Shown piece by piece: positions 1,830 through 61,914 of a stretch of DNA of 64,000 nucleotides (its first letter is position 1; each line of letters opens with the position of its first letter). The notes under the pieces were generated by a model. The model was not told the origin of the DNA and searched no databases. It saw only the letters and a program-made list of their open reading frames with translations. The stretch covers positions 8,424 through 72,423 of the forward strand of contig JBAYFP010000003.1 in the NCBI GenBank assembly GCA_041667145.1. Direction: 5' to 3'. Position numbers and translations under genes: made by a program. This DNA is from Minisyncoccota bacterium (GTDB taxonomy: Bacteria > Patescibacteriota > Minisyncoccia > Phycocordibacterales > UBA9973).

Positions 1830-2486
1830 TTAGACATCAATAGAAAAATCTTCTTTTAGAAAAATAGGAAATTGTTCTCTTTGTTCTCTAACTAAAGAAG
1901 CTACTTTTAAACATTCCTCTTTAAAATTTAAATTATCACCATAAAATTCAAGGAGGATAGCTGCTTCTTTTTTAGAAACTATCTTAAAATTCATTCTCTC
2001 ATATTCTTTATCACTAGATACAATCAGACAACTTTTCTCAGGTGGTATATCATGAATCATGTAATTGACATTTACATAAGGAAAAACCTTTAAAAAATAC
2101 TGTTCGTCACTTATCAAATTAGATTTAAATCTACCTTGGAATAGTGCCCCACTGCGATGATGTACTTCATTGAAGTATTTTGTATACCCACCCAACAATC
2201 TTTTTAGAAATTCAGAAATACCTCCATCTATCTCTTGTTTTAGAACAAAATGAAAATGATTTGGGTTAAAACAATAGCAAACAATAGAAACTAAAACGTT
2301 TTGCTCTCCCATACATACGATACCCGATTTATCCCTAATACTCCCTATTGGTTTAATTGTATTAAACTTCTTTACACTTAAAACAAAACGATCTATATCT
2401 TTTTTGGTTGTAAAAATGTCTCTTTTATCAACACCCCTATTAAAAATATGATAATACTGATCAGTTACGAGAGGATTTTTTCTCAT
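1830..2486 (-). CDS. IS200-like Y1 HuH transposase of the REP-associated (RAYT, COG1943-type) kind.
   Basis: 218 aa. Motifs YYHIFNRGVDKRDIF, the HuH motif NPNHFHFVL, and GYTKYFNEVHHRSGALFQGRFKS. These match the YHV-NRG...NHVHLL...Y--Y-N--H-R-GHLWQGRFKS pattern of PF01797/COG1943 proteins. Flanked on both sides by REP1 palindromes. Confidence 0.8.
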   Translation of the reverse strand: MRKNPLVTDQYYHIFNRGVDKRDIFTTKKDIDRFVLSVKKFNTIKPIGSIRDKSGIVCMGEQNVLVSIVCYCFNPNHFHFVLKQEIDGGISEFLKRLLGGYTKYFNEVHHRSGALFQGRFKSNLISDEQYFLKVFPYVNVNYMIHDIPPEKSCLIVSSDKEYERMNFKIVSKKEAAILLEFYGDNLNFKEECLKVASLVREQREQFPIFLKEDFSIDV

Positions 2487-5314: not shown

Positions 5315-7516
5315 TTAAAGAGCATAGTCACTTATTGCAGCTGCAGAAACAGGTGAGATAAAGTCAGTTAGATTAATTGTGTAGAACTTAGCAGCAGTAG
5401 CATCTGCTGGATCCCAGTTAATCGAACCAAGCTTTATTTGGTAGTAACCATCACCATCTGTACCTGTTGTATCAAGACTTAATGTAGCTGTCAAATGGAA
5501 ACGACGAGTAGCTCCTTCTTTAACCATAAAGTCGGTTGTACTATCGTCTGTTGTTGCTCCATCAGCTGTGAGAATAGATGTTGGGCCAACAGCATAGTTA
5601 GCCACTGCTTGATCTACTATAGAACCATTTTTAGCAATATAGTAAACAACACCTTGTCCTGCTCCAGTTGGCAAAGAAGCTATTGTAGTGTCAAATAATG
5701 CACTTTTATCAATATATACATCTTCACCGATAGCGGTAATATCAAAGTTGATAACCCCTGTATAAGAATCAGTCAATGTAGCAGTATCAGGAGATACCTG
5801 TCTTGTGCCAGTTGCAGATACTAAAGTAGCAACCATTCCCTTTGTATAGAATGTTTGGATATTACCAGTTGCAGAACCTGTTCTATCACCAGTAAGTACA
5901 GTATCACCACCTTCTGTTGTCTCAACAAGAACCTTTGTTACATCAGTAAGATCTGCACCCAAGAATGAGAGCTTCAAATTGTCTGCTTGGTCAAAGATAG
6001 CAGCACCTGAAGTTGTTGCAAGTGCTTTCATTGTTGCCTTAACTGTAAAGACTGTAGTCGTATCTTTCTCAAGAGTAAGACCAGAAATATCAGAGAAAAT
6101 AACTGTTCCAGCCGTTTCTTTATTAGCATAATCCCATGACGTTGAGGTTGATGGGTCTGAATCTGCTACGGCAATCGAATCTGTTCCTTTAAAGAGTTCC
6201 CAACTATTTACCATTTCAACCATACCATCAGAATCCCCGGTTGAAGTTGCAGCAAATCGAAGTTTTGTAATATCCATAGCACCACCTGTTGCCTTCAAAC
6301 TAAAGGTAAGCATTGGTACAACTGTTGTACCTGTTTCACTTAATGTGACAACTCCAGTTGTAGGATTACCTGATGCTGTAGCAAGTTTAAGTGCTAGGTC
6401 ACCTGAACTAACAACACTTGAGAAAGCAATTAATTCAGAAACAATAGTTGAATCTGTCAAAATGGCACCTGTCGCATCATTATAACGTACACTAACAGTA
6501 GCTACTGTCCAGTCTAAACCTGCACTATGTTGATCTGTTGAATCAATAGTACTATTAGCTGTTACTTCAACAACTAATGTTATTTTCTGACCAGCTTTTA
6601 CTATTACTCCTGAAAGTGGGATAGAACCACTGTATGTATTATTAGAGGTATCTCTTGTGAAGTTACTTGTAGAAAGTGATCCAACTTTAGTTGAACCCAT
6701 ATATATAGCAACATCACTCATATAACGATCTAATCGGTAAGAACCAGATCCACCATTCGCAGCATGTGTAAATTTAAGCTTTAAAGATGTAAGATTCAAA
6801 TCTGAACCATTATCAGCTTTAACCTCAAATGCGAGAACCTTTGCGGAATCACCTTCATTTACTTCCTCATCATTATAAACTGAAAGTTTTGTTAAAGCAG
6901 AAATATTTCCTGCTCCGCCAGTTACTGTTCCAGTTGTTGAATCACACTTTACGCCAGTTGTTGAACTGTATCCTACAGCTGATGTACAGCCTGCTGGATA
7001 AGTCGTAACTGTTGAACATGATAAACCTGTTGTTGTACTGTATCCTGCTGCTGATGTACAGCCTGCTGGATAATTACCAGTAACAGCACCATTACATGCC
7101 AAACCAGTTACTGAACTGAATCCTACGGTTGATGTACAACCTGGTAAGAAAGCACTAGCTGGAGCACCAGCATTGATTTGAGCGACAGCGGAAGCTCTGG
7201 ACATTGCGCCTAGAACACCGTCAGCTGCTAAACCTCTGGAACCCTGCCAAGCTTTAGCTTGAACTTCAGATAATGGTCCGAATTTTCCATCCTCAACTAA
7301 TTGAGCGGTGGTACTGTAACCATTAAGAAATCTCTGCCAAATTAATGCAGCTTGTCCTGAACTACCTGCGCGAACTGTAGCCGCATACTGAATATCAGCT
7401 GCTGTTACAATCGCTTGCTGAGCATTAGCTTTAGGTACAAGAGCGACAGCTCCTGCAACCAAAACTGCTACTAGCATAACTCCTAAAAGAAATTTTGATT
7501 TTAATAATTTACTCAT
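5315..7516 (-). CDS. Large secreted surface protein with an N-terminal PG_binding_1 domain and P-x-G-C-T-S...G-Y-S-x-T-T-G-x-x-C repeats.
   Basis: 733 aa. Signal peptide MSKLLKSKFLLGVMLVAVLVAGAVALVPKANA. QAALIWQRFLNG...DGKFGPLSEVQAKAWQGSRGLAADGVLG matches PG_binding_1. The Cys motif is repeated four times, then a long beta-rich region follows. Confidence 0.7.
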   Translation of the reverse strand: MSKLLKSKFLLGVMLVAVLVAGAVALVPKANAQQAIVTAADIQYAATVRAGSSGQAALIWQRFLNGYSTTAQLVEDGKFGPLSEVQAKAWQGSRGLAADGVLGAMSRASAVAQINAGAPASAFLPGCTSTVGFSSVTGLACNGAVTGNYPAGCTSAAGYSTTTGLSCSTVTTYPAGCTSAVGYSSTTGVKCDSTTGTVTGGAGNISALTKLSVYNDEEVNEGDSAKVLAFEVKADNGSDLNLTSLKLKFTHAANGGSGSYRLDRYMSDVAIYMGSTKVGSLSTSNFTRDTSNNTYSGSIPLSGVIVKAGQKITLVVEVTANSTIDSTDQHSAGLDWTVATVSVRYNDATGAILTDSTIVSELIAFSSVVSSGDLALKLATASGNPTTGVVTLSETGTTVVPMLTFSLKATGGAMDITKLRFAATSTGDSDGMVEMVNSWELFKGTDSIAVADSDPSTSTSWDYANKETAGTVIFSDISGLTLEKDTTTVFTVKATMKALATTSGAAIFDQADNLKLSFLGADLTDVTKVLVETTEGGDTVLTGDRTGSATGNIQTFYTKGMVATLVSATGTRQVSPDTATLTDSYTGVINFDITAIGEDVYIDKSALFDTTIASLPTGAGQGVVYYIAKNGSIVDQAVANYAVGPTSILTADGATTDDSTTDFMVKEGATRRFHLTATLSLDTTGTDGDGYYQIKLGSINWDPADATAAKFYTINLTDFISPVSAAAISDYAL

Positions 7517-8100
7517 AATTTTTTACTACGCCATTAATTAGTTTCGACAAAACTAAAAGCGTATTTTTCTATCATTATTTTTTTATTCACCTATAACTTT
7601 TAAAAATTAATAATGCGGTAAATAAATTTAATAATGAACAGATTTAAACTAAACGAAAACAAAACTATTTCAACAAATTTATTTCGTTAAAATATTCACT
7701 AAATCAGAAATATATTTCTCATTTAGTTATTTAGTTTTCAATGACCTTTCTTTTACCCATACAAATTTTTGACCTTTGATGGGCTTGCTCTCCTTCAAGA
7801 TTTTTTCGACGAAATCGTGAATGAAAACAAATAACATTTGCGAACACAGAACACACTTTACAGTGAGCAATCTGTGTACACCCAAACATTATAATATATA
7901 GCTCTAGGCTAGAGCAATAGACTATGTGGATAACCCCGAACAAAAGCCAAAGGCTTCGTACGAAGCAGGTTCCTTTTTGAGAGAAAACCTGTATAATCCA
8001 TACATCTATATTCTCATAATTTTAATCAAAAAGCAACCTAAATAGACCCTATAATTAAAGTAGACGTTTGACACTAGATAAAAGTACAAAAAATATCCAT

Positions 8101-8215
8101 AAAAATCACTAAATTAACTATCTTAAAAAGCATTGCGCAGGCGGGTAGCCGAGCATAGCAATTCGCCAACAGGCGAATATGCGTGGTTTTTAAAATAGAT
8201 AATTTAGTGATTTTT
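8101..8215. repeat. Hairpin element: about 22 nt AT-rich inverted arms (aaaaatcactaaattaactatctt / aagatagataatttagtgattttt) enclosing a GC-rich core with an internal hairpin attcgcc-aaca-ggcgaat.
   Basis: Read directly. The right arm overlaps the stop codon of gene 8204..9040. The core is followed by tggttttt on the plus strand. Confidence 0.6.
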
Positions 8216-9040
8216 CTGATTTAAAAAGTATTGACTCCAACGTTTCTCTCCAGTTTTCTTAAGGACATTGTCTTTTACCATGGAAACTAATTCACGTTGT
8301 AAAGTTTTCTCTCCGACTTCTTCATTGACACCTTGAAGTGCAACTGCTATGTCTCTTATACTCATTCCATCTGGCTTTTGTCCTAAAACTTTTATTATTG
8401 AATCCCTCCTCCCTTTCTTTATTAATCCCCTATCTTCGCTAAAGCTTCGAAGGGCAGATCCATGCTCAACTTTATTTAAAGCATTCATTAATGTACTTCC
8501 CTTTTGGACACCAATTCTAGTTGACTGTCCTTTATAAAGTGATGGGTTATGTCCTTTAGAAAAATCCTTTTCCTTATCAGACAAAGACACCTGAGGTGTC
8601 TCTAAAAATCCTTCAAGCCATAGATTGTTTCTGGAAGTAAATTCTTGAATAGATAGTTTCAACTCCTCAAACTCCTTTCTTAGGATATTGGAGTTCATTT
8701 CAGATATCATCCTAATGTCAAAAGAAATACTTAAAAAGGACAGGATTGAGACAATCTTTTCATTAAGTCCGTTAAGGTTTCCTCTCTGTCCTGAAGCTGT
8801 GTCTGATAAAATTTCTACACCCAATGTCCTTAATTTGAGACGAATGGGTTCGTCCTTTTCCATAGTGTCTGTGACCATGTAGAGAGCAGTAATAAGCTTA
8901 TTTATTTTAGTATAAGGTAAAGGGCTATACATATTGGGAGTGTCTATATCATATGAAGTCAAAGACCTTGATACAGTGTCTCTTATAGAACCTTTTGGAG
9001 AGTCTTTTAGGTTTTTATTTTCACCTAACATGCTGTCCAT
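8204..9040 (-). CDS. Hypothetical protein with a C-terminal winged-helix-like DNA-binding region.
   Basis: 278 aa. The C-terminal segment MSIRDIAVALQGVNEEVGEKTLQRELVSMVKDNVLKKTGEKRWSQY resembles the wHTH tails of Fic/DeoR-like proteins. No catalytic motif was recognised. Confidence 0.45.
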   Translation of the reverse strand: MDSMLGENKNLKDSPKGSIRDTVSRSLTSYDIDTPNMYSPLPYTKINKLITALYMVTDTMEKDEPIRLKLRTLGVEILSDTASGQRGNLNGLNEKIVSILSFLSISFDIRMISEMNSNILRKEFEELKLSIQEFTSRNNLWLEGFLETPQVSLSDKEKDFSKGHNPSLYKGQSTRIGVQKGSTLMNALNKVEHGSALRSFSEDRGLIKKGRRDSIIKVLGQKPDGMSIRDIAVALQGVNEEVGEKTLQRELVSMVKDNVLKKTGEKRWSQYFLNQKNH

Positions 9041-9080: not shown

Positions 9081-9230
9081 ATTTTCAGCAAGTGTAGCCT
9101 TTAAAATGCACACATAAAATAAAGCTTTATTTTTGCTCTGCTCGTCGTTCAAGAAAATAATAAATGGAATACCATTTTTATTTTCTAAACTCCTGCGCAA
9201 GGCATTTAAAATGCTACACTTGCTGAAAAT
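9081..9230. repeat. Approximately 29 nt inverted repeat (attttcagcaagtgtagcctttaaaatgc / gcatttaaaatgctacacttgctgaaaat) enclosing about 90 nt that contains two small hairpins. Candidate structured RNA or MITE-like element.
   Basis: Read directly. One or two mismatches over 29 nt. Lies in the divergent intergenic region between 9040 and ftsK. Confidence 0.5.
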
Positions 9231-15029: not shown

Positions 15030-15965
15030 CTAAATGTCAAAAAGCTTTCTAGCATTATTTACGATCGTTTTTGCCACTTCTTCTAGAGAAAGACCCTTTA
15101 TCTCCGCAATTCTTTTAACTATCTCTTTAACATAAACAGGCTCATTACGTTTTCCACGATAAGGAATCGGTGCCATATATGGTGAATCTGTATCAGCCAA
15201 TATCATTTCTAGGGAAATATTTTTTATTATTCCCTCATAATCACAATTCCTTCCATTTTTTCTTTTTGGATAAGTGATGGCACCAGTAAAAGAAATCATA
15301 AAACCAAAGGATATAAAATCTTTCGCATTTTCTAAACTGCCTTCAAAAAAATGTATAACACCTTTAACTTTTGCATGTTTCTTTAAAATTTTTAATAAAT
15401 CATCATATGCATTTCTTTTTTCATCTTCATAATTATTCCTAACATGAATCATCAAAGGCTTACCTACCTCATTTGCCAACTTGATTTGTTCAATTAGAGC
15501 TTTCTCTTGCTTTTCTATCGAATTTTCGTCCAAATGAAAATAATCAAGGCCACACTCACCTATAGCTACGACTTTCGGATCTTTCGCAAGTTCTAAATAA
15601 ATTTTTTTATCAAAAATCTCTCCACGGGAAGTAAACCCGGTAGTGAATGTTGGCGATGCACTTTTAGTGCGTGGCGAAGCCACATCGCCAACATCTACTA
15701 ACCGGGTAAATTCTTTTTCTATTACACCCAATTCTTCATCATCATGAAAAGATTTATCTGTATGTATAGGATGTAATCCAATAATTGCAAAAACACCTTC
15801 ATCGTATCTATGAGCCAACTTGATCGCTTCACGCGAAGTATCAATCTGCGTTCCTACATTAAAAAACCAAGTATCATTATCTAACGCTCTACGAACGACG
15901 GCATCATGGTCTTCTTCAAAAACCTTAAAATTAACATGAGCATGTATATCTATATATTTTGGCAT
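15030..15965 (-). CDS. tatD: TatD-family metal-dependent hydrolase with an in-frame insertion.
   Basis: 311 aa. IDIHAHVNF...GLHPIH motifs. About 25 aa longer than is typical, because of the inserted segment VGDVASPRTKSASPTFTTGFTSRG. Confidence 0.8.
   Translation of the reverse strand: MPKYIDIHAHVNFKVFEEDHDAVVRRALDNDTWFFNVGTQIDTSREAIKLAHRYDEGVFAIIGLHPIHTDKSFHDDEELGVIEKEFTRLVDVGDVASPRTKSASPTFTTGFTSRGEIFDKKIYLELAKDPKVVAIGECGLDYFHLDENSIEKQEKALIEQIKLANEVGKPLMIHVRNNYEDEKRNAYDDLLKILKKHAKVKGVIHFFEGSLENAKDFISFGFMISFTGAITYPKRKNGRNCDYEGIIKNISLEMILADTDSPYMAPIPYRGKRNEPVYVKEIVKRIAEIKGLSLEEVAKTIVNNARKLFDI
15634..15708. repeat. In-frame palindromic insertion within tatD (cccggtagtgaatgttggcgatg ... catcgccaacatctactaaccggg, with nested hairpins gcact-ttt-agtgc and gtggc-gaa-gccac).
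   Basis: A 75 nt near-perfect palindrome lying entirely inside the coding sequence. Its translation is the extra peptide noted for tatD. Confidence 0.7.
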
Positions 15966-42080: not shown

Positions 42081-42115
42081 AAGTTGAATTTTAACATAAA
42101 TAACATATAATAAAT

Positions 42116-42196
42116 AAAGTTAAGCAAATTAAAGTTTTCGAGCTGGTCTGGGGCTCTGCCTTGAGGACCCGAGAAAACTTTAATTTGCTTAACTTT
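42116..42196. repeat. E-family element copy 2: a perfect 23 bp AT-rich inverted repeat (aaagttaagcaaattaaagtttt / aaaactttaatttgcttaacttt) enclosing the core cgagctggtctggggctctgccttgaggacccgag.
   Basis: The core is 34 of 35 nt identical to 9305..9338. The arms are unrelated to the arms at the other loci. The element ends 3 nt before the hit start codon. Confidence 0.75.
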
Positions 42197-42198
42197 AT

Positions 42199-42591
42199 AT
42201 GCAAAACTGCATTTTTTGTAAAATAATAAAAGGAGAAATACCATGCGACAAAATATATGAAGATGAGAAATACTTATCTTTTTTGGATATTGAACCCGTA
42301 TCAGCAGGGCATATTTTAGTAATACCTAAAGAACATATCGTCTGGATGCAAGAAGTAGATGATGAAACGATATCAGGAATTTTTAAATTATGTAAAAAAT
42401 TAATGCTCGCAATTAAAAAAGGCGTCGACTGTGATTATGTACAGCTCGCTATCAGTGGTAAAGATATTCCTCATTTCCATATACACCTCATCCCACGCTA
42501 TTTCAACGACGGCCTTAGTGAATGGCCAACTATAGAATATAAAGACGGGGAATCGAAAGAAATAATAAACAAAATTATTTCAGCGCTTTAA
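42199..42591 (+). CDS. HIT-family (histidine triad) hydrolase.
   Basis: 130 aa. HFHIHLIP (HxHxHxx). Confidence 0.85.
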   Translation: MQNCIFCKIIKGEIPCDKIYEDEKYLSFLDIEPVSAGHILVIPKEHIVWMQEVDDETISGIFKLCKKLMLAIKKGVDCDYVQLAISGKDIPHFHIHLIPRYFNDGLSEWPTIEYKDGESKEIINKIISAL

Positions 42592-59586: not shown

Positions 59587-59687
59587 AAAAATGTAAAGAA
59601 ACACTTTTTCATGGCTCGCACTCGAACCTGAATATGGTTTACGAATGTAATATTGCGTATGCCAAAAAAAGTGTTTCTTTACATTTT
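59587..59687. repeat. Hairpin element with a perfect 22 bp AT-rich inverted repeat (aaaatgtaaagaaacacttttt / aaaaagtgtttctttacatttt) around a 57 nt GC-richer core.
   Basis: Read directly. Same architecture as the E-family elements. Located downstream of 59346..59579 and upstream of tig. Confidence 0.6.
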
Positions 59688-59768
59688 TTACGGAAGTTAT
59701 TAAAAAGCATCTGCTTCGTGTTTTTTTATTATCTTTGCATTTTTTTTAAAAAAATATAGTATATTTAT

Positions 59769-61210: not shown

Positions 61211-61914
61211 AAACACTTGGACATCGGATGTCCAAGTGTTTAATTTTCTAATTCTTTTAACATTTCTTTTCTTAATTCCATATCTTCCAACGATGAAGAG
61301 ACAAAGTCCTCGTACTCTTTTTTATTTCTAAACTGTTCTAGCACAATATTTGTATTACAAAATTTATTATTTAACGTTTCATCTAAAAATTCATTCAAAC
61401 TTGATTTACTCAACTTAGACATCGGATGTCCAAGTTTGTTATTTCCATTAATATAAGCGCTAAGGTGAAGCAAATATTCATTTGAATCAATATGTTTTGA
61501 TTTAAATTTACCTTGGAAAAGAACACCGCTACGTTTATGCCTATTATTAAAATATTTTGTATACCCATTCCCCAACCTCTGCATAAATTTCTCAACCCCT
61601 TTCTCTTGAAGAGGAGTAATTAAAAAATGAAAGTGATTAGGGTTCATACAATAAGCAATAAATTGTACAAGCGGTTTCTTTTTTTTATTAGCTTCGCCAA
61701 ACTTTTTCTTAAAAGAAAATTCATAAACACTACCGATTGGCTCTGTTTGATTAAAATCAAATATACTTTCACAAAAACGAAATAAATCCTTTTCATCAAC
61801 AAAAATATTCCTCTTATCTGTTCCACGATTATAAATATGATAATACTCATTAATTGCAAAAGAATGTTTTCTCATACTCAAACTATATCACTTGGACATC
61901 GGATGTCCAAGTGG
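61211..61914 (-). mobile_element. REP-RAYT-REP unit B, inserted between tig and clpP. Its cognate palindrome family REP2 (ttggacatcggatgtccaa) is distinct from REP1.
   Basis: Palindromes at 61211..61241 (overlapping the stop codon), 61412..61436 (inside the coding sequence) and 61889..61914 (8 nt upstream of the start and 37 nt upstream of clpP). Confidence 0.7.
61240..61881 (-). CDS. IS200-like Y1 HuH transposase of the RAYT type, paralog of 1830..2486.
   Basis: 213 aa. [15 protein letters not shown], the HuH motif NPNHFHFLI, and [23 protein letters not shown]. About 40% identical to RAYT A across the conserved blocks. Confidence 0.8.

Follow-up and report, generated by a model that had tools for sequence, protein, structure and literature searches.

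A 64,000-nt stretch of a Minisyncoccota bacterium contig (JBAYFP010000003.1, positions 8,424 to 72,423; referred to here as the window) carries a gene for a TatD-family hydrolase with a hairpin-forming palindrome inserted in frame. This insert belongs to a dispersed repeat; it entered tatD secondarily at an exact site, is bordered by short direct repeats, and has a hairpin architecture that is conserved at the DNA level. We regard it as probable that the insert is one copy of a dispersed, non-autonomous, mobile or formerly mobile DNA palindrome family of Patescibacteria, similar to transposable elements of the miniature inverted-repeat type (MITEs), repetitive extragenic palindromes (REPs), or Rickettsia palindromic elements (RPEs), and that the copy is tolerated in a loop of TatD.

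A sequence-only reading of the window had placed a palindrome at 15634-15708 inside the TatD coding sequence. This location was confirmed: the body of the element occupies 15636-15706 and lies wholly within the open reading frame (ORF) at 15030..15965 on the minus strand. The gene and the parts of the element are as follows.

15030..15965, minus strand: intact coding sequence of a TatD-family hydrolase of 311 aa (ORF list and Pfam PF01026)
15636..15706, minus strand (gene sense): palindromic element body of 71 nt, a long stem enclosing two small hairpins, coding for TatD residues ~86-110
15684..15706, minus strand: arm 1 in gene sense, CCCGGTTAGTAGATGTTGGCGAT, a terminal inverted repeat that is conserved and was recognized by pairing and covariation
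15636..15657, minus strand: arm 2 in gene sense, ATCGCCAACATTCACTACCGGG, recognized by its pairing with arm 1
15671..15683, minus strand: inner hairpin P2, sense GTGGCTTCGCCAC (plus strand GTGGCGAAGCCAC), hypervariable among copies
15658..15670, minus strand: inner hairpin P3, sense GCACTAAAAGTGC (plus strand GCACTTTTAGTGC), a variant common to the TatD copies and most pilin copies, with GCGCTAAAAGCGC at locus L074
15706..15710, minus strand: first copy of the direct repeat (TTTAC in coding-strand sense), located 5' of the element with respect to the gene, its last base being shared with the stem
15631..15635, minus strand: second copy of the direct repeat (TTTAC in coding-strand sense), located 3' of the element

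On the plus strand, the flanking 5-nt repeats read GTAAA at 15631-15635 and 15706-15710. The predicted RNA fold of the sense strand had a free energy of −45.9 kcal/mol (z = −6.7), which none of 200 shuffled sequences equaled; folded with DNA parameters, the two strands gave −26.3 and −26.2 kcal/mol (z = −7.9 and −8.9). The palindrome had been described as 75 nt long. The insert does have this length, but the palindrome itself comprises 70-71 nt, and the rest is one copy of the 5-nt direct repeat. Similarly, two small hairpins do lie within the long stem as described, but they are adjacent and not nested one in the other, which results in a three-way junction.

Evidence for insertion came from the comparison of filled and empty sites. 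The window tatD reads GAA-TTTAC-(70 nt)-TTTAC-TTCC, and the insert-less orthologues at loci L081 and L082 have the exact empty site, GAATTTAC followed directly by TTCC, reading GAATTTACTTCC. From this comparison, the added block is exactly 75 nt (25 codons) and consists of the palindrome and the second TTTAC. At the protein level, the closest relatives (286-287 aa, 79-81% identity) have ...GKEFTSRGE... where the window protein has ...EKEFTRLVDVGDVASPRTKSASPTFTTGFTSRGE.... Thus, the gain of about 25 aa put forward in the sequence-only reading holds, whereas the peptide given there does not: the correct one is TRLVDVGDVASPRTKSASPTFTTGF, and TSRG is native TatD. The length of 311 aa was also right, although it had been set against a usual ~260 aa, whereas the correct baseline is the 286-287 aa of the closest orthologues.

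A homologous insert occupies the same site in 15 of the 118 best full-length TatD orthologues; the remaining 103, the closest ones included, are without it. On a neighbor-joining tree built without the insert columns, the insert-bearing proteins fell in at least eight separate places, reflecting gains or losses, and the window TatD was nested among insert-less sequences. One orthologue (P0072, locus L003) carries two different element copies head to tail, in the order TTTAC-a-TTTAC-b-TTTAC. Among the TatD copies, the long stem varies by compensatory changes (GTTGG/CCAAC, GTCGG/CCGAC, TTTGG/CCAAA, ATTGG/CCAAT, and GTTGAC/GTCAAC), and unrelated inner hairpins replace one another, e.g., TGGCTTCGCCA, CGACAAAGTCG, and CTCCAGTTAATACTGGAG. 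Since the stems compensate and the inner hairpins are exchanged, the conserved peptide of the insert is a by-product of the conserved DNA palindrome. Conservation of the segment in diverse TatD homologs had been named as an observation that would speak against insertion; the segment does recur in some homologs, but patchily, and the site is empty in the nearest relatives. In-frame insertion of a palindrome is therefore supported by the exact empty site, by the patchy presence among orthologues, and by copies of the element at unrelated loci of related genomes.

The ORF of the recipient gene matched Pfam PF01026 (TatD_DNase) with 241.7 bits (cut-off, 27; E = 1e-71) over residues 5-309 and profile positions 1-252 of 253, and an identical protein has been deposited as a TatD family hydrolase of a metagenome-assembled genome (MAG) assigned to Candidatus Paceibacterota, which places the organism among the Patescibacteria. 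Relatives in the PDB include 1j6o and 6l25, and the protein was aligned with solved TatD/YcfH structures. The residues that we take to be the metal ligands, H8, H10, E137, H174, H205, and D260, are invariant in an alignment of 25 sequences (A1). The AlphaFold2 model computed from a 25-sequence alignment had a mean predicted local distance difference test score (pLDDT) of 81.7 and a predicted template modeling score of 0.83, with a confident TIM barrel; residues 73-112, which comprise a lineage-specific loop and the entire insert, had pLDDT values below 50. Because the barrel is confidently modeled, the loop is predicted to be disordered, and the presumed metal ligands are invariant, the insert-bearing tatD is most likely a functional gene, and the 25 residues most likely form a tolerated, disordered surface loop rather than a useful one. 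A second indel, of ~10 aa and resembling PSFAKATDGQ, precedes the palindrome site by a few residues in some orthologues (P0070, P0080, P0108, P0072, and P0085; A1 columns 101-115). We considered whether it is another palindrome and rejected this, as the corresponding DNA at locus L003 was not significantly structured (z = −0.9). With a second, different indel so close to the palindrome site, the TatD loop is an indel hot spot.

Copies outside tatD were found at both the protein and the DNA level. A profile of the insert peptide (30 residues), searched against 1.84 billion representative proteins, gave 15 matches, mostly in proteins other than TatD. The latter are ~200-aa proteins matching near residues 10-40, and of ten matches scanned, every Pfam-positive one had the prepilin N-methylation motif PF07963, except one large repetitive protein. 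In these pilin-like proteins, the copies directly precede the cleavage motif (...KGFT/RLVDFGDA...SPKFTTG/FTLIEVL), and the site is again TTYAC, encoding Phe-Thr. An artificial 50-aa concatenation of two open frames had no match in a word-indexed protein search. We further scanned a strict two-part DNA pattern over one genome per species, covering 185,579 species, and obtained 73 matches, with ~1 chance match estimated. Approximately 69 were in MAGs of Patescibacteria (Paceibacterota, Nomura-, Zambryski-, and Kaiserbacteria, and some labelled Saccharibacteria), and four (Bacteroidota, Clostridia, and Chitinophaga) look spurious. The same pattern had no match in viral contigs, giving no sign of carriage by phages. 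Several related genomes have two to four strict-pattern copies, on separate contigs or at separate spots of one contig: four in JBAZVG01 and three each in MFTO01, JBAYKK01, and CAYZOL01. In the window, covariance model R1 scored the tatD copy at 83.9 bits (E = 3e-24) as the sole significant match, and neither a relaxed search for the arms nor an unfiltered run of R1, whose next match reached 12 bits, detected a further copy in the 64 kb.

The majority of the copies are intergenic, in both orientations relative to genes. Besides the window tatD, in-frame copies in recognizable genes comprise three in TatD, five in pilin genes, and one in UvrC. The UvrC copy splits the protein at the start of the endonuclease domain (RI/EAYDI), with the 3' half of the element in a different reading frame. 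A head-to-tail intergenic array of five 72-nt copies with 98% identity, in which neighbors share one TCAA(C), was found on a metagenome contig (L083, 2121-2482); it has been miscalled as a protein of 212 aa (P0134). Many copies lie a few codons 5' of gene starts, on either strand, including those of genes for PNPase, a class-V aminotransferase/cysteine desulfurase, ribosomal protein S12 (rpsL), UDG, a PLD-like protein, and a Vut_1 transporter. The same gene is marked in different species in two cases: pnp at loci L018 and L062, and the class-V aminotransferase/cysteine desulfurase gene at L056, L064, and L071. In a group of copies flanked by TATAC, the element sits between a −10-like box and the start codon. 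A sub-family with the inner hairpins GTTATTTAATAAC and AATTCCGTAGGAATT is always at (A/T)TCAT (L022, L037, L043, L039, L047, L050, L054, and L055), where it abuts the ATG of a gene on the opposite strand and the start-codon context is duplicated, TCAT being the reverse complement of the ATGA context. Three different genes of one genome (L022, L037, and L043) carry copies of this sub-family at their starts. Given the conserved placement in 5' leaders, some copies could have been co-opted.

The elements are 65-81 nt long, with conserved inverted arms of 22-24 nt (consensus, CCC(N)G(T)TAGTAGATTTTGGCRATG ... YTYGCCAAAAYTCACTACNGGG); the stem contains an A·C / G·T imperfection that is likewise conserved. 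GTAG lies at the base of each arm and is base-paired within the long stem. The search pattern fixed parts of the left arm only, leaving the matching positions of the right arm free. At 14 arm pairs tested in 41 diverse copies, 97% of positions were paired, compared to 19-48% in slid controls, and double-sided changes numbered 32 versus 7.2 in shuffles. The central region, on the other hand, is hypervariable in sequence, with 76 distinct versions among 77 copies, and yet nearly all copies have two adjacent GC-rich hairpins there, mostly with 4- to 5-bp stems (up to 9 bp) and 3-nt loops (mean central z = −2.7 versus shuffles). A three-way junction was predicted for 69 of 79 copies. In most coding copies, P3 is GCACYAAARGTGC; this coding sub-family has a total length of 75 nt and one stop-free frame. 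Selected RNA helices are normally strand-specific and accommodate numerous G·U pairs. Here, G·T pairs made up only ~1% of pairs in the arms and inner hairpins, neither strand showed an excess, and the two strands fold equally well; these features point away from an RNA function and towards a constraint acting on the palindromy of the DNA or on the two strands alike.

Of 70 copies, 50 lie between direct repeats of at least 5 nt, compared to 18.5% of mismatched controls, in which the left and right flanks were taken from different copies; the repeats always abut the foot of the stem. The flanking cores are mostly of the form T-N-N-A(C): TTTA (13 copies), TCAA (11 copies), TATA (8 copies), TTGA (6 copies), and TCAT/TTCA (8 copies). 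Pairs of copies that share inner hairpins at non-orthologous sites had an identical 4-nt core in 33% of cases, versus 7% of other pairs (odds ratio of 6.6, with the pairs being non-independent).

On the basis of these data, we propose that the element entered tatD at the TTTAC of the Phe-Thr codons in the loop, leaving the frame open and adding 25 residues to a presumably disordered surface loop. The gene stayed open because the body and one repeat together measure 75 nt and one frame of the sub-family lacks a stop codon; the same open frame would explain why insertions at Phe-Thr codons survive in loops and in leader peptides. The direct repeat may mark the insertion event, either as a target-site duplication or as a target core carried along with the element, and the sub-family specificity of the core suggests that it may be a recognized target rather than a staggered-cut duplication. 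Targets resembling (G)TTTAC may be preferred, the element may be lost precisely between its repeats, or lineages may recombine; any of these could account for the repeated use of the tatD site in several lineages.

Several observations weigh against a dispersed mobile family as we propose it. In ~0.5 Mb of sequence surrounding the copies, we detected neither a transposase nor a longer, autonomous element bearing the arms of the family. In these loci, no pair of arms 0.7-2 kb apart encloses an ORF, and solo arms occur at chance level by a rough estimate. The correlation of the core with the sub-family is not predicted by plain staggered-cut duplication. Many copies occupy conserved spots just upstream of start codons, so that some could be functional and not selfish. 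The window holds a single copy, and the multi-copy status rests on related genomes. Moreover, the same tatD site is filled in several separate lineages, which needs a strong target preference, repeated precise loss, or inter-lineage recombination.

Two RAYT-like genes (RAYT, REP-associated tyrosine transposase) of the Y1_Tnp type and the palindromes around them were also found in the window, as follows.

1830-2486, minus strand: RAYT-like Y1_Tnp gene (Pfam PF01797, 23.5 bits versus a cut-off of 23)
1747-1797 and 2617-2667: inverted doublets of palindrome CAGACGTTGGACGTCTG around the first RAYT-like gene
2503-2519 and 2692-2708: single copies of palindrome CAGACGTTGGACGTCTG around the same gene
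61240-61881, minus strand: second RAYT-like Y1_Tnp gene (36.1 bits, above the Pfam cut-off)
61217-61235 and 61892-61910: palindrome TTGGACATCGGATGTCCAA flanking the second RAYT-like gene

The region at 1747-2708 looks like a classic REP-RAYT arrangement in a genome of the candidate phyla radiation (CPR). The tatD palindrome had been called a second one, unrelated to another family in this genome; that first family was probably CAGACGTTGGACGTCTG, and the tatD element indeed differs in sequence from both CAGACGTTGGACGTCTG and TTGGACATCGGATGTCCAA. A third, slightly diverged copy of TTGGACATCGGATGTCCAA lies at 61415-61433 inside the RAYT-like ORF and is read in frame; homologs have a different segment there. 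A 230-aa Y1_Tnp (RAYT-like) gene is located directly upstream of the insert-less tatD at locus L081 and on the P0003 contig. In the stretch at 5346-6048 of L081, an inverted repeat of 20 nt (6006-6025 / 6029-6048) comes after this gene; it is perfect and overlaps the annotated start of tatD.

We compared the family with known short palindromic and mobile repeats. RPEs were reportedly described by Ogata et al. in 2000 as in-frame palindromic elements of Rickettsia. Like RPEs, the tatD-type elements are short palindromes of a reduced genome that occur both between genes and in frame and are read through in tolerated positions (PMC10969869). Unlike RPEs, whose hosts are Alphaproteobacteria, they reside in Patescibacteria; no sequence resemblance was noticed, in the absence of a direct comparison with the RPE consensus. 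RPEs are ~100-150 nt long and have been reported mostly in frame, whereas the tatD-type family is about half that size and mostly intergenic among the copies found; it also differs in its clear flanking direct repeats, its three-way junction, and its hypervariable inner hairpins. With MITEs such as Correia/NEMIS, Nezha, QMITE, and bcr1, the family shares a small size, a non-coding nature, terminal inverted repeats, flanking direct repeats, several copies per genome as far as related genomes show, and occasional in-frame fusions to ORFs (PMC10969869). The small size, the terminal inverted repeats, and the flanking repeats with an empty site are those expected of a MITE, although the core may be a recognized target, and no parent insertion sequence was found in the ~0.5 Mb of loci. 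In addition, the tatD-type element consists of nearly only two inverted repeats, with an interior of two perfect mini-hairpins, and its flanking repeat looks sequence- and sub-family-specific instead of arbitrary.

REPs and their doublets (REPINs) with RAYTs offer a third comparison. Here the likeness is in the palindrome with GTAG at the arm bases, in the RAYT-like Y1 genes of the same genomes, and in an intragenic copy in a repair gene, uvrC; REPs inside replication and repair genes have been reported (PMC3733652). However, REPs are single hairpins of 20-40 nt whose GTAG (or CGTC) tag is unpaired and which lack a flanking duplication, while the GTAG of the tatD-type element is paired in a 22-bp stem, and the RAYT-like genes examined carry other repeats. 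With the ends of IS200/IS605 insertion sequences and with their miniature derivatives (PATEs), the family has in common a dependence on hairpin shape, apparent insertion beside a specific 4- to 5-nt sequence (TTAC for IS608; PMC5934647, PMC3201880, PMC5027513), and an exact empty site. It differs from them in that no adjacent TnpA was seen, the core is the same on both sides, and the hairpins are symmetrical on both strands; IS200/IS605 elements and PATEs have separate left and right subterminal hairpins, whereas the tatD-type element is one long hairpin. No internal guide sequence of the IS200/IS605 type was identified in the element. Judged by analogy, the behavior of the family is closest to that of RPEs, and its build is closest to that of bacterial MITEs.

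We weighed the mobile-palindrome reading against four other explanations. A possible but doubtful one is that the same element moves as folded single-stranded DNA by means of an HUH/Y1 enzyme, of the IS200/IS605 TnpA or RAYT type, which inserts it 3' of a short core; the element would carry its own copy of the core at its 3' end, so that the repeat would be no target-site duplication and excision would be precise. Such movement beside a recognized core would explain why shape and not sequence is conserved, why cores follow sub-families, why empty sites are exact, and why head-to-tail arrays share one core. The conserved mismatch in the long stem fits as well, as do the Y1_Tnp genes in the window and in related genomes. 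GTAG tags, seen here at the arm bases, are typical of RAYT-associated REPs (PMC3733652), and in IS608, recognition of the TTAC target relies on its base pairing with the element (PMC5934647, PMC3201880). However, the RAYT-like Y1 genes of the window, L025, and L081 carry other, unrelated palindromes; the tatD-type element was absent from 80 RAYT-like metagenome loci (293 kb, flanks searched); and a Y1 gene occurred at only 1 of ~70 element loci, 2 kb away. Furthermore, pairing is equally perfect on both strands, without the top-strand specificity of IS200/IS605, and known IS200/IS605 ends have different left and right cleavage sequences.

The strong fold, its conservation through compensatory changes, and the many copies a few codons upstream of housekeeping starts, some of them orthologous (pnp and cysteine desulfurase), could also be read as the marks of a functional structured RNA, such as an RNase III or other processing site, an mRNA stabilizer, or a translational regulator, with the tatD copy being an embedded regulator; the sub-family abutting the start codons of three genes in a single genome would agree with this. 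We consider such an RNA improbable, since the scarcity of G·U pairs and the lack of strand asymmetry are unlike selected RNA helices, the copies lie in both orientations relative to genes and also inside coding sequences, and the direct repeats, tandem arrays, and empty sites are signatures of insertion. No Rfam family matched: Rfam 15 at gathering score returned only tRNAs in 10 element-bearing loci, and nothing in the window region came near threshold at E ≤ 10. Still less credible is an ancestral native TatD loop that is palindromic by chance, was retained because of a role in the protein, and disappeared from most relatives. Fifteen TatD orthologues of only 61-73% overall identity do contain a recognizable form of the peptide, always at the identical position, as this explanation would have it; nonetheless, it is missing from the 103 other orthologues, the closest among them, the same nucleotide element recurs in intergenic DNA, pilin genes, and uvrC, the variation is compensatory at the DNA level with whole hairpins swapped while the middle of the peptide changes freely, and disorder is predicted for the loop. 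A chance palindrome or a one-off local duplication or inversion, with no family behind it, would agree with the single copy in the 64 kb, but we give it practically no weight in view of z-scores of −6.7 to −8.9 and of the ~69 copies in other genomes that fit the strict pattern. Two known structures were considered separately and rejected. A hammerhead or other ribozyme was dismissed because there are no unpaired nucleotides at the junction. Integron attC sites have inverted core sites (RYYYAAC / GTTRRRY) at their ends and occur in cassette arrays with IntI nearby; the flanks here are direct and not inverted, and the copies are solitary or head to tail without cassettes.

Going beyond the mobile-palindrome family itself, we tentatively suggest, as a rather unlikely extension, that the elements form a hitherto undescribed class of site-specific hairpin DNA elements of CPR bacteria. 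Each would be a ~70-nt three-way junction carrying its own 4- to 5-nt core, inserted and excised precisely via a single-stranded or cruciform intermediate by an enzyme that is neither a neighboring RAYT nor that of a classical insertion sequence, and some copies would have been co-opted as pilin leaders, enzyme loops, or start-codon 5'-leader hairpins. The three-way-junction shape, together with the specificity for a core, leaves room for such a less ordinary mechanism, and the conserved junction with its scarce G·T pairs provides a handle for finding the recognizing enzyme.

Genomes of CPR bacteria (Patescibacteria) are very small and are usually described as poor in mobile DNA. The element family is previously undescribed in these bacteria; in the literature searched on CPR, Patescibacteria, and Parcubacteria, we met with no relevant account of MITEs, palindromic repeats, or palindromes inserted in frame. 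An RPE-like phenomenon would thereby extend to an unrelated, deeply branching group, in which it has repeatedly hit housekeeping genes (tatD and uvrC) as well as the leaders of type IV pilins and is read through. In the pilins, the copies lengthen the leader peptide upstream of the apparent prepilin cleavage motif G/FTLIE. For annotation, insertions of 24-25 residues of the VDFGDA...SPKFTTG type are to be expected in CPR proteins; the family explains such odd insertions, which can split protein clusters.

Lastly, the window contains long AT-rich inverted repeats with arms of 23-52 nt at 42088-42224, 8098-8218, 9081-9230, and 59587-59688, which are unrelated to the tatD element; the arms of the last one (59587-59609 / 59666-59688) are perfect.

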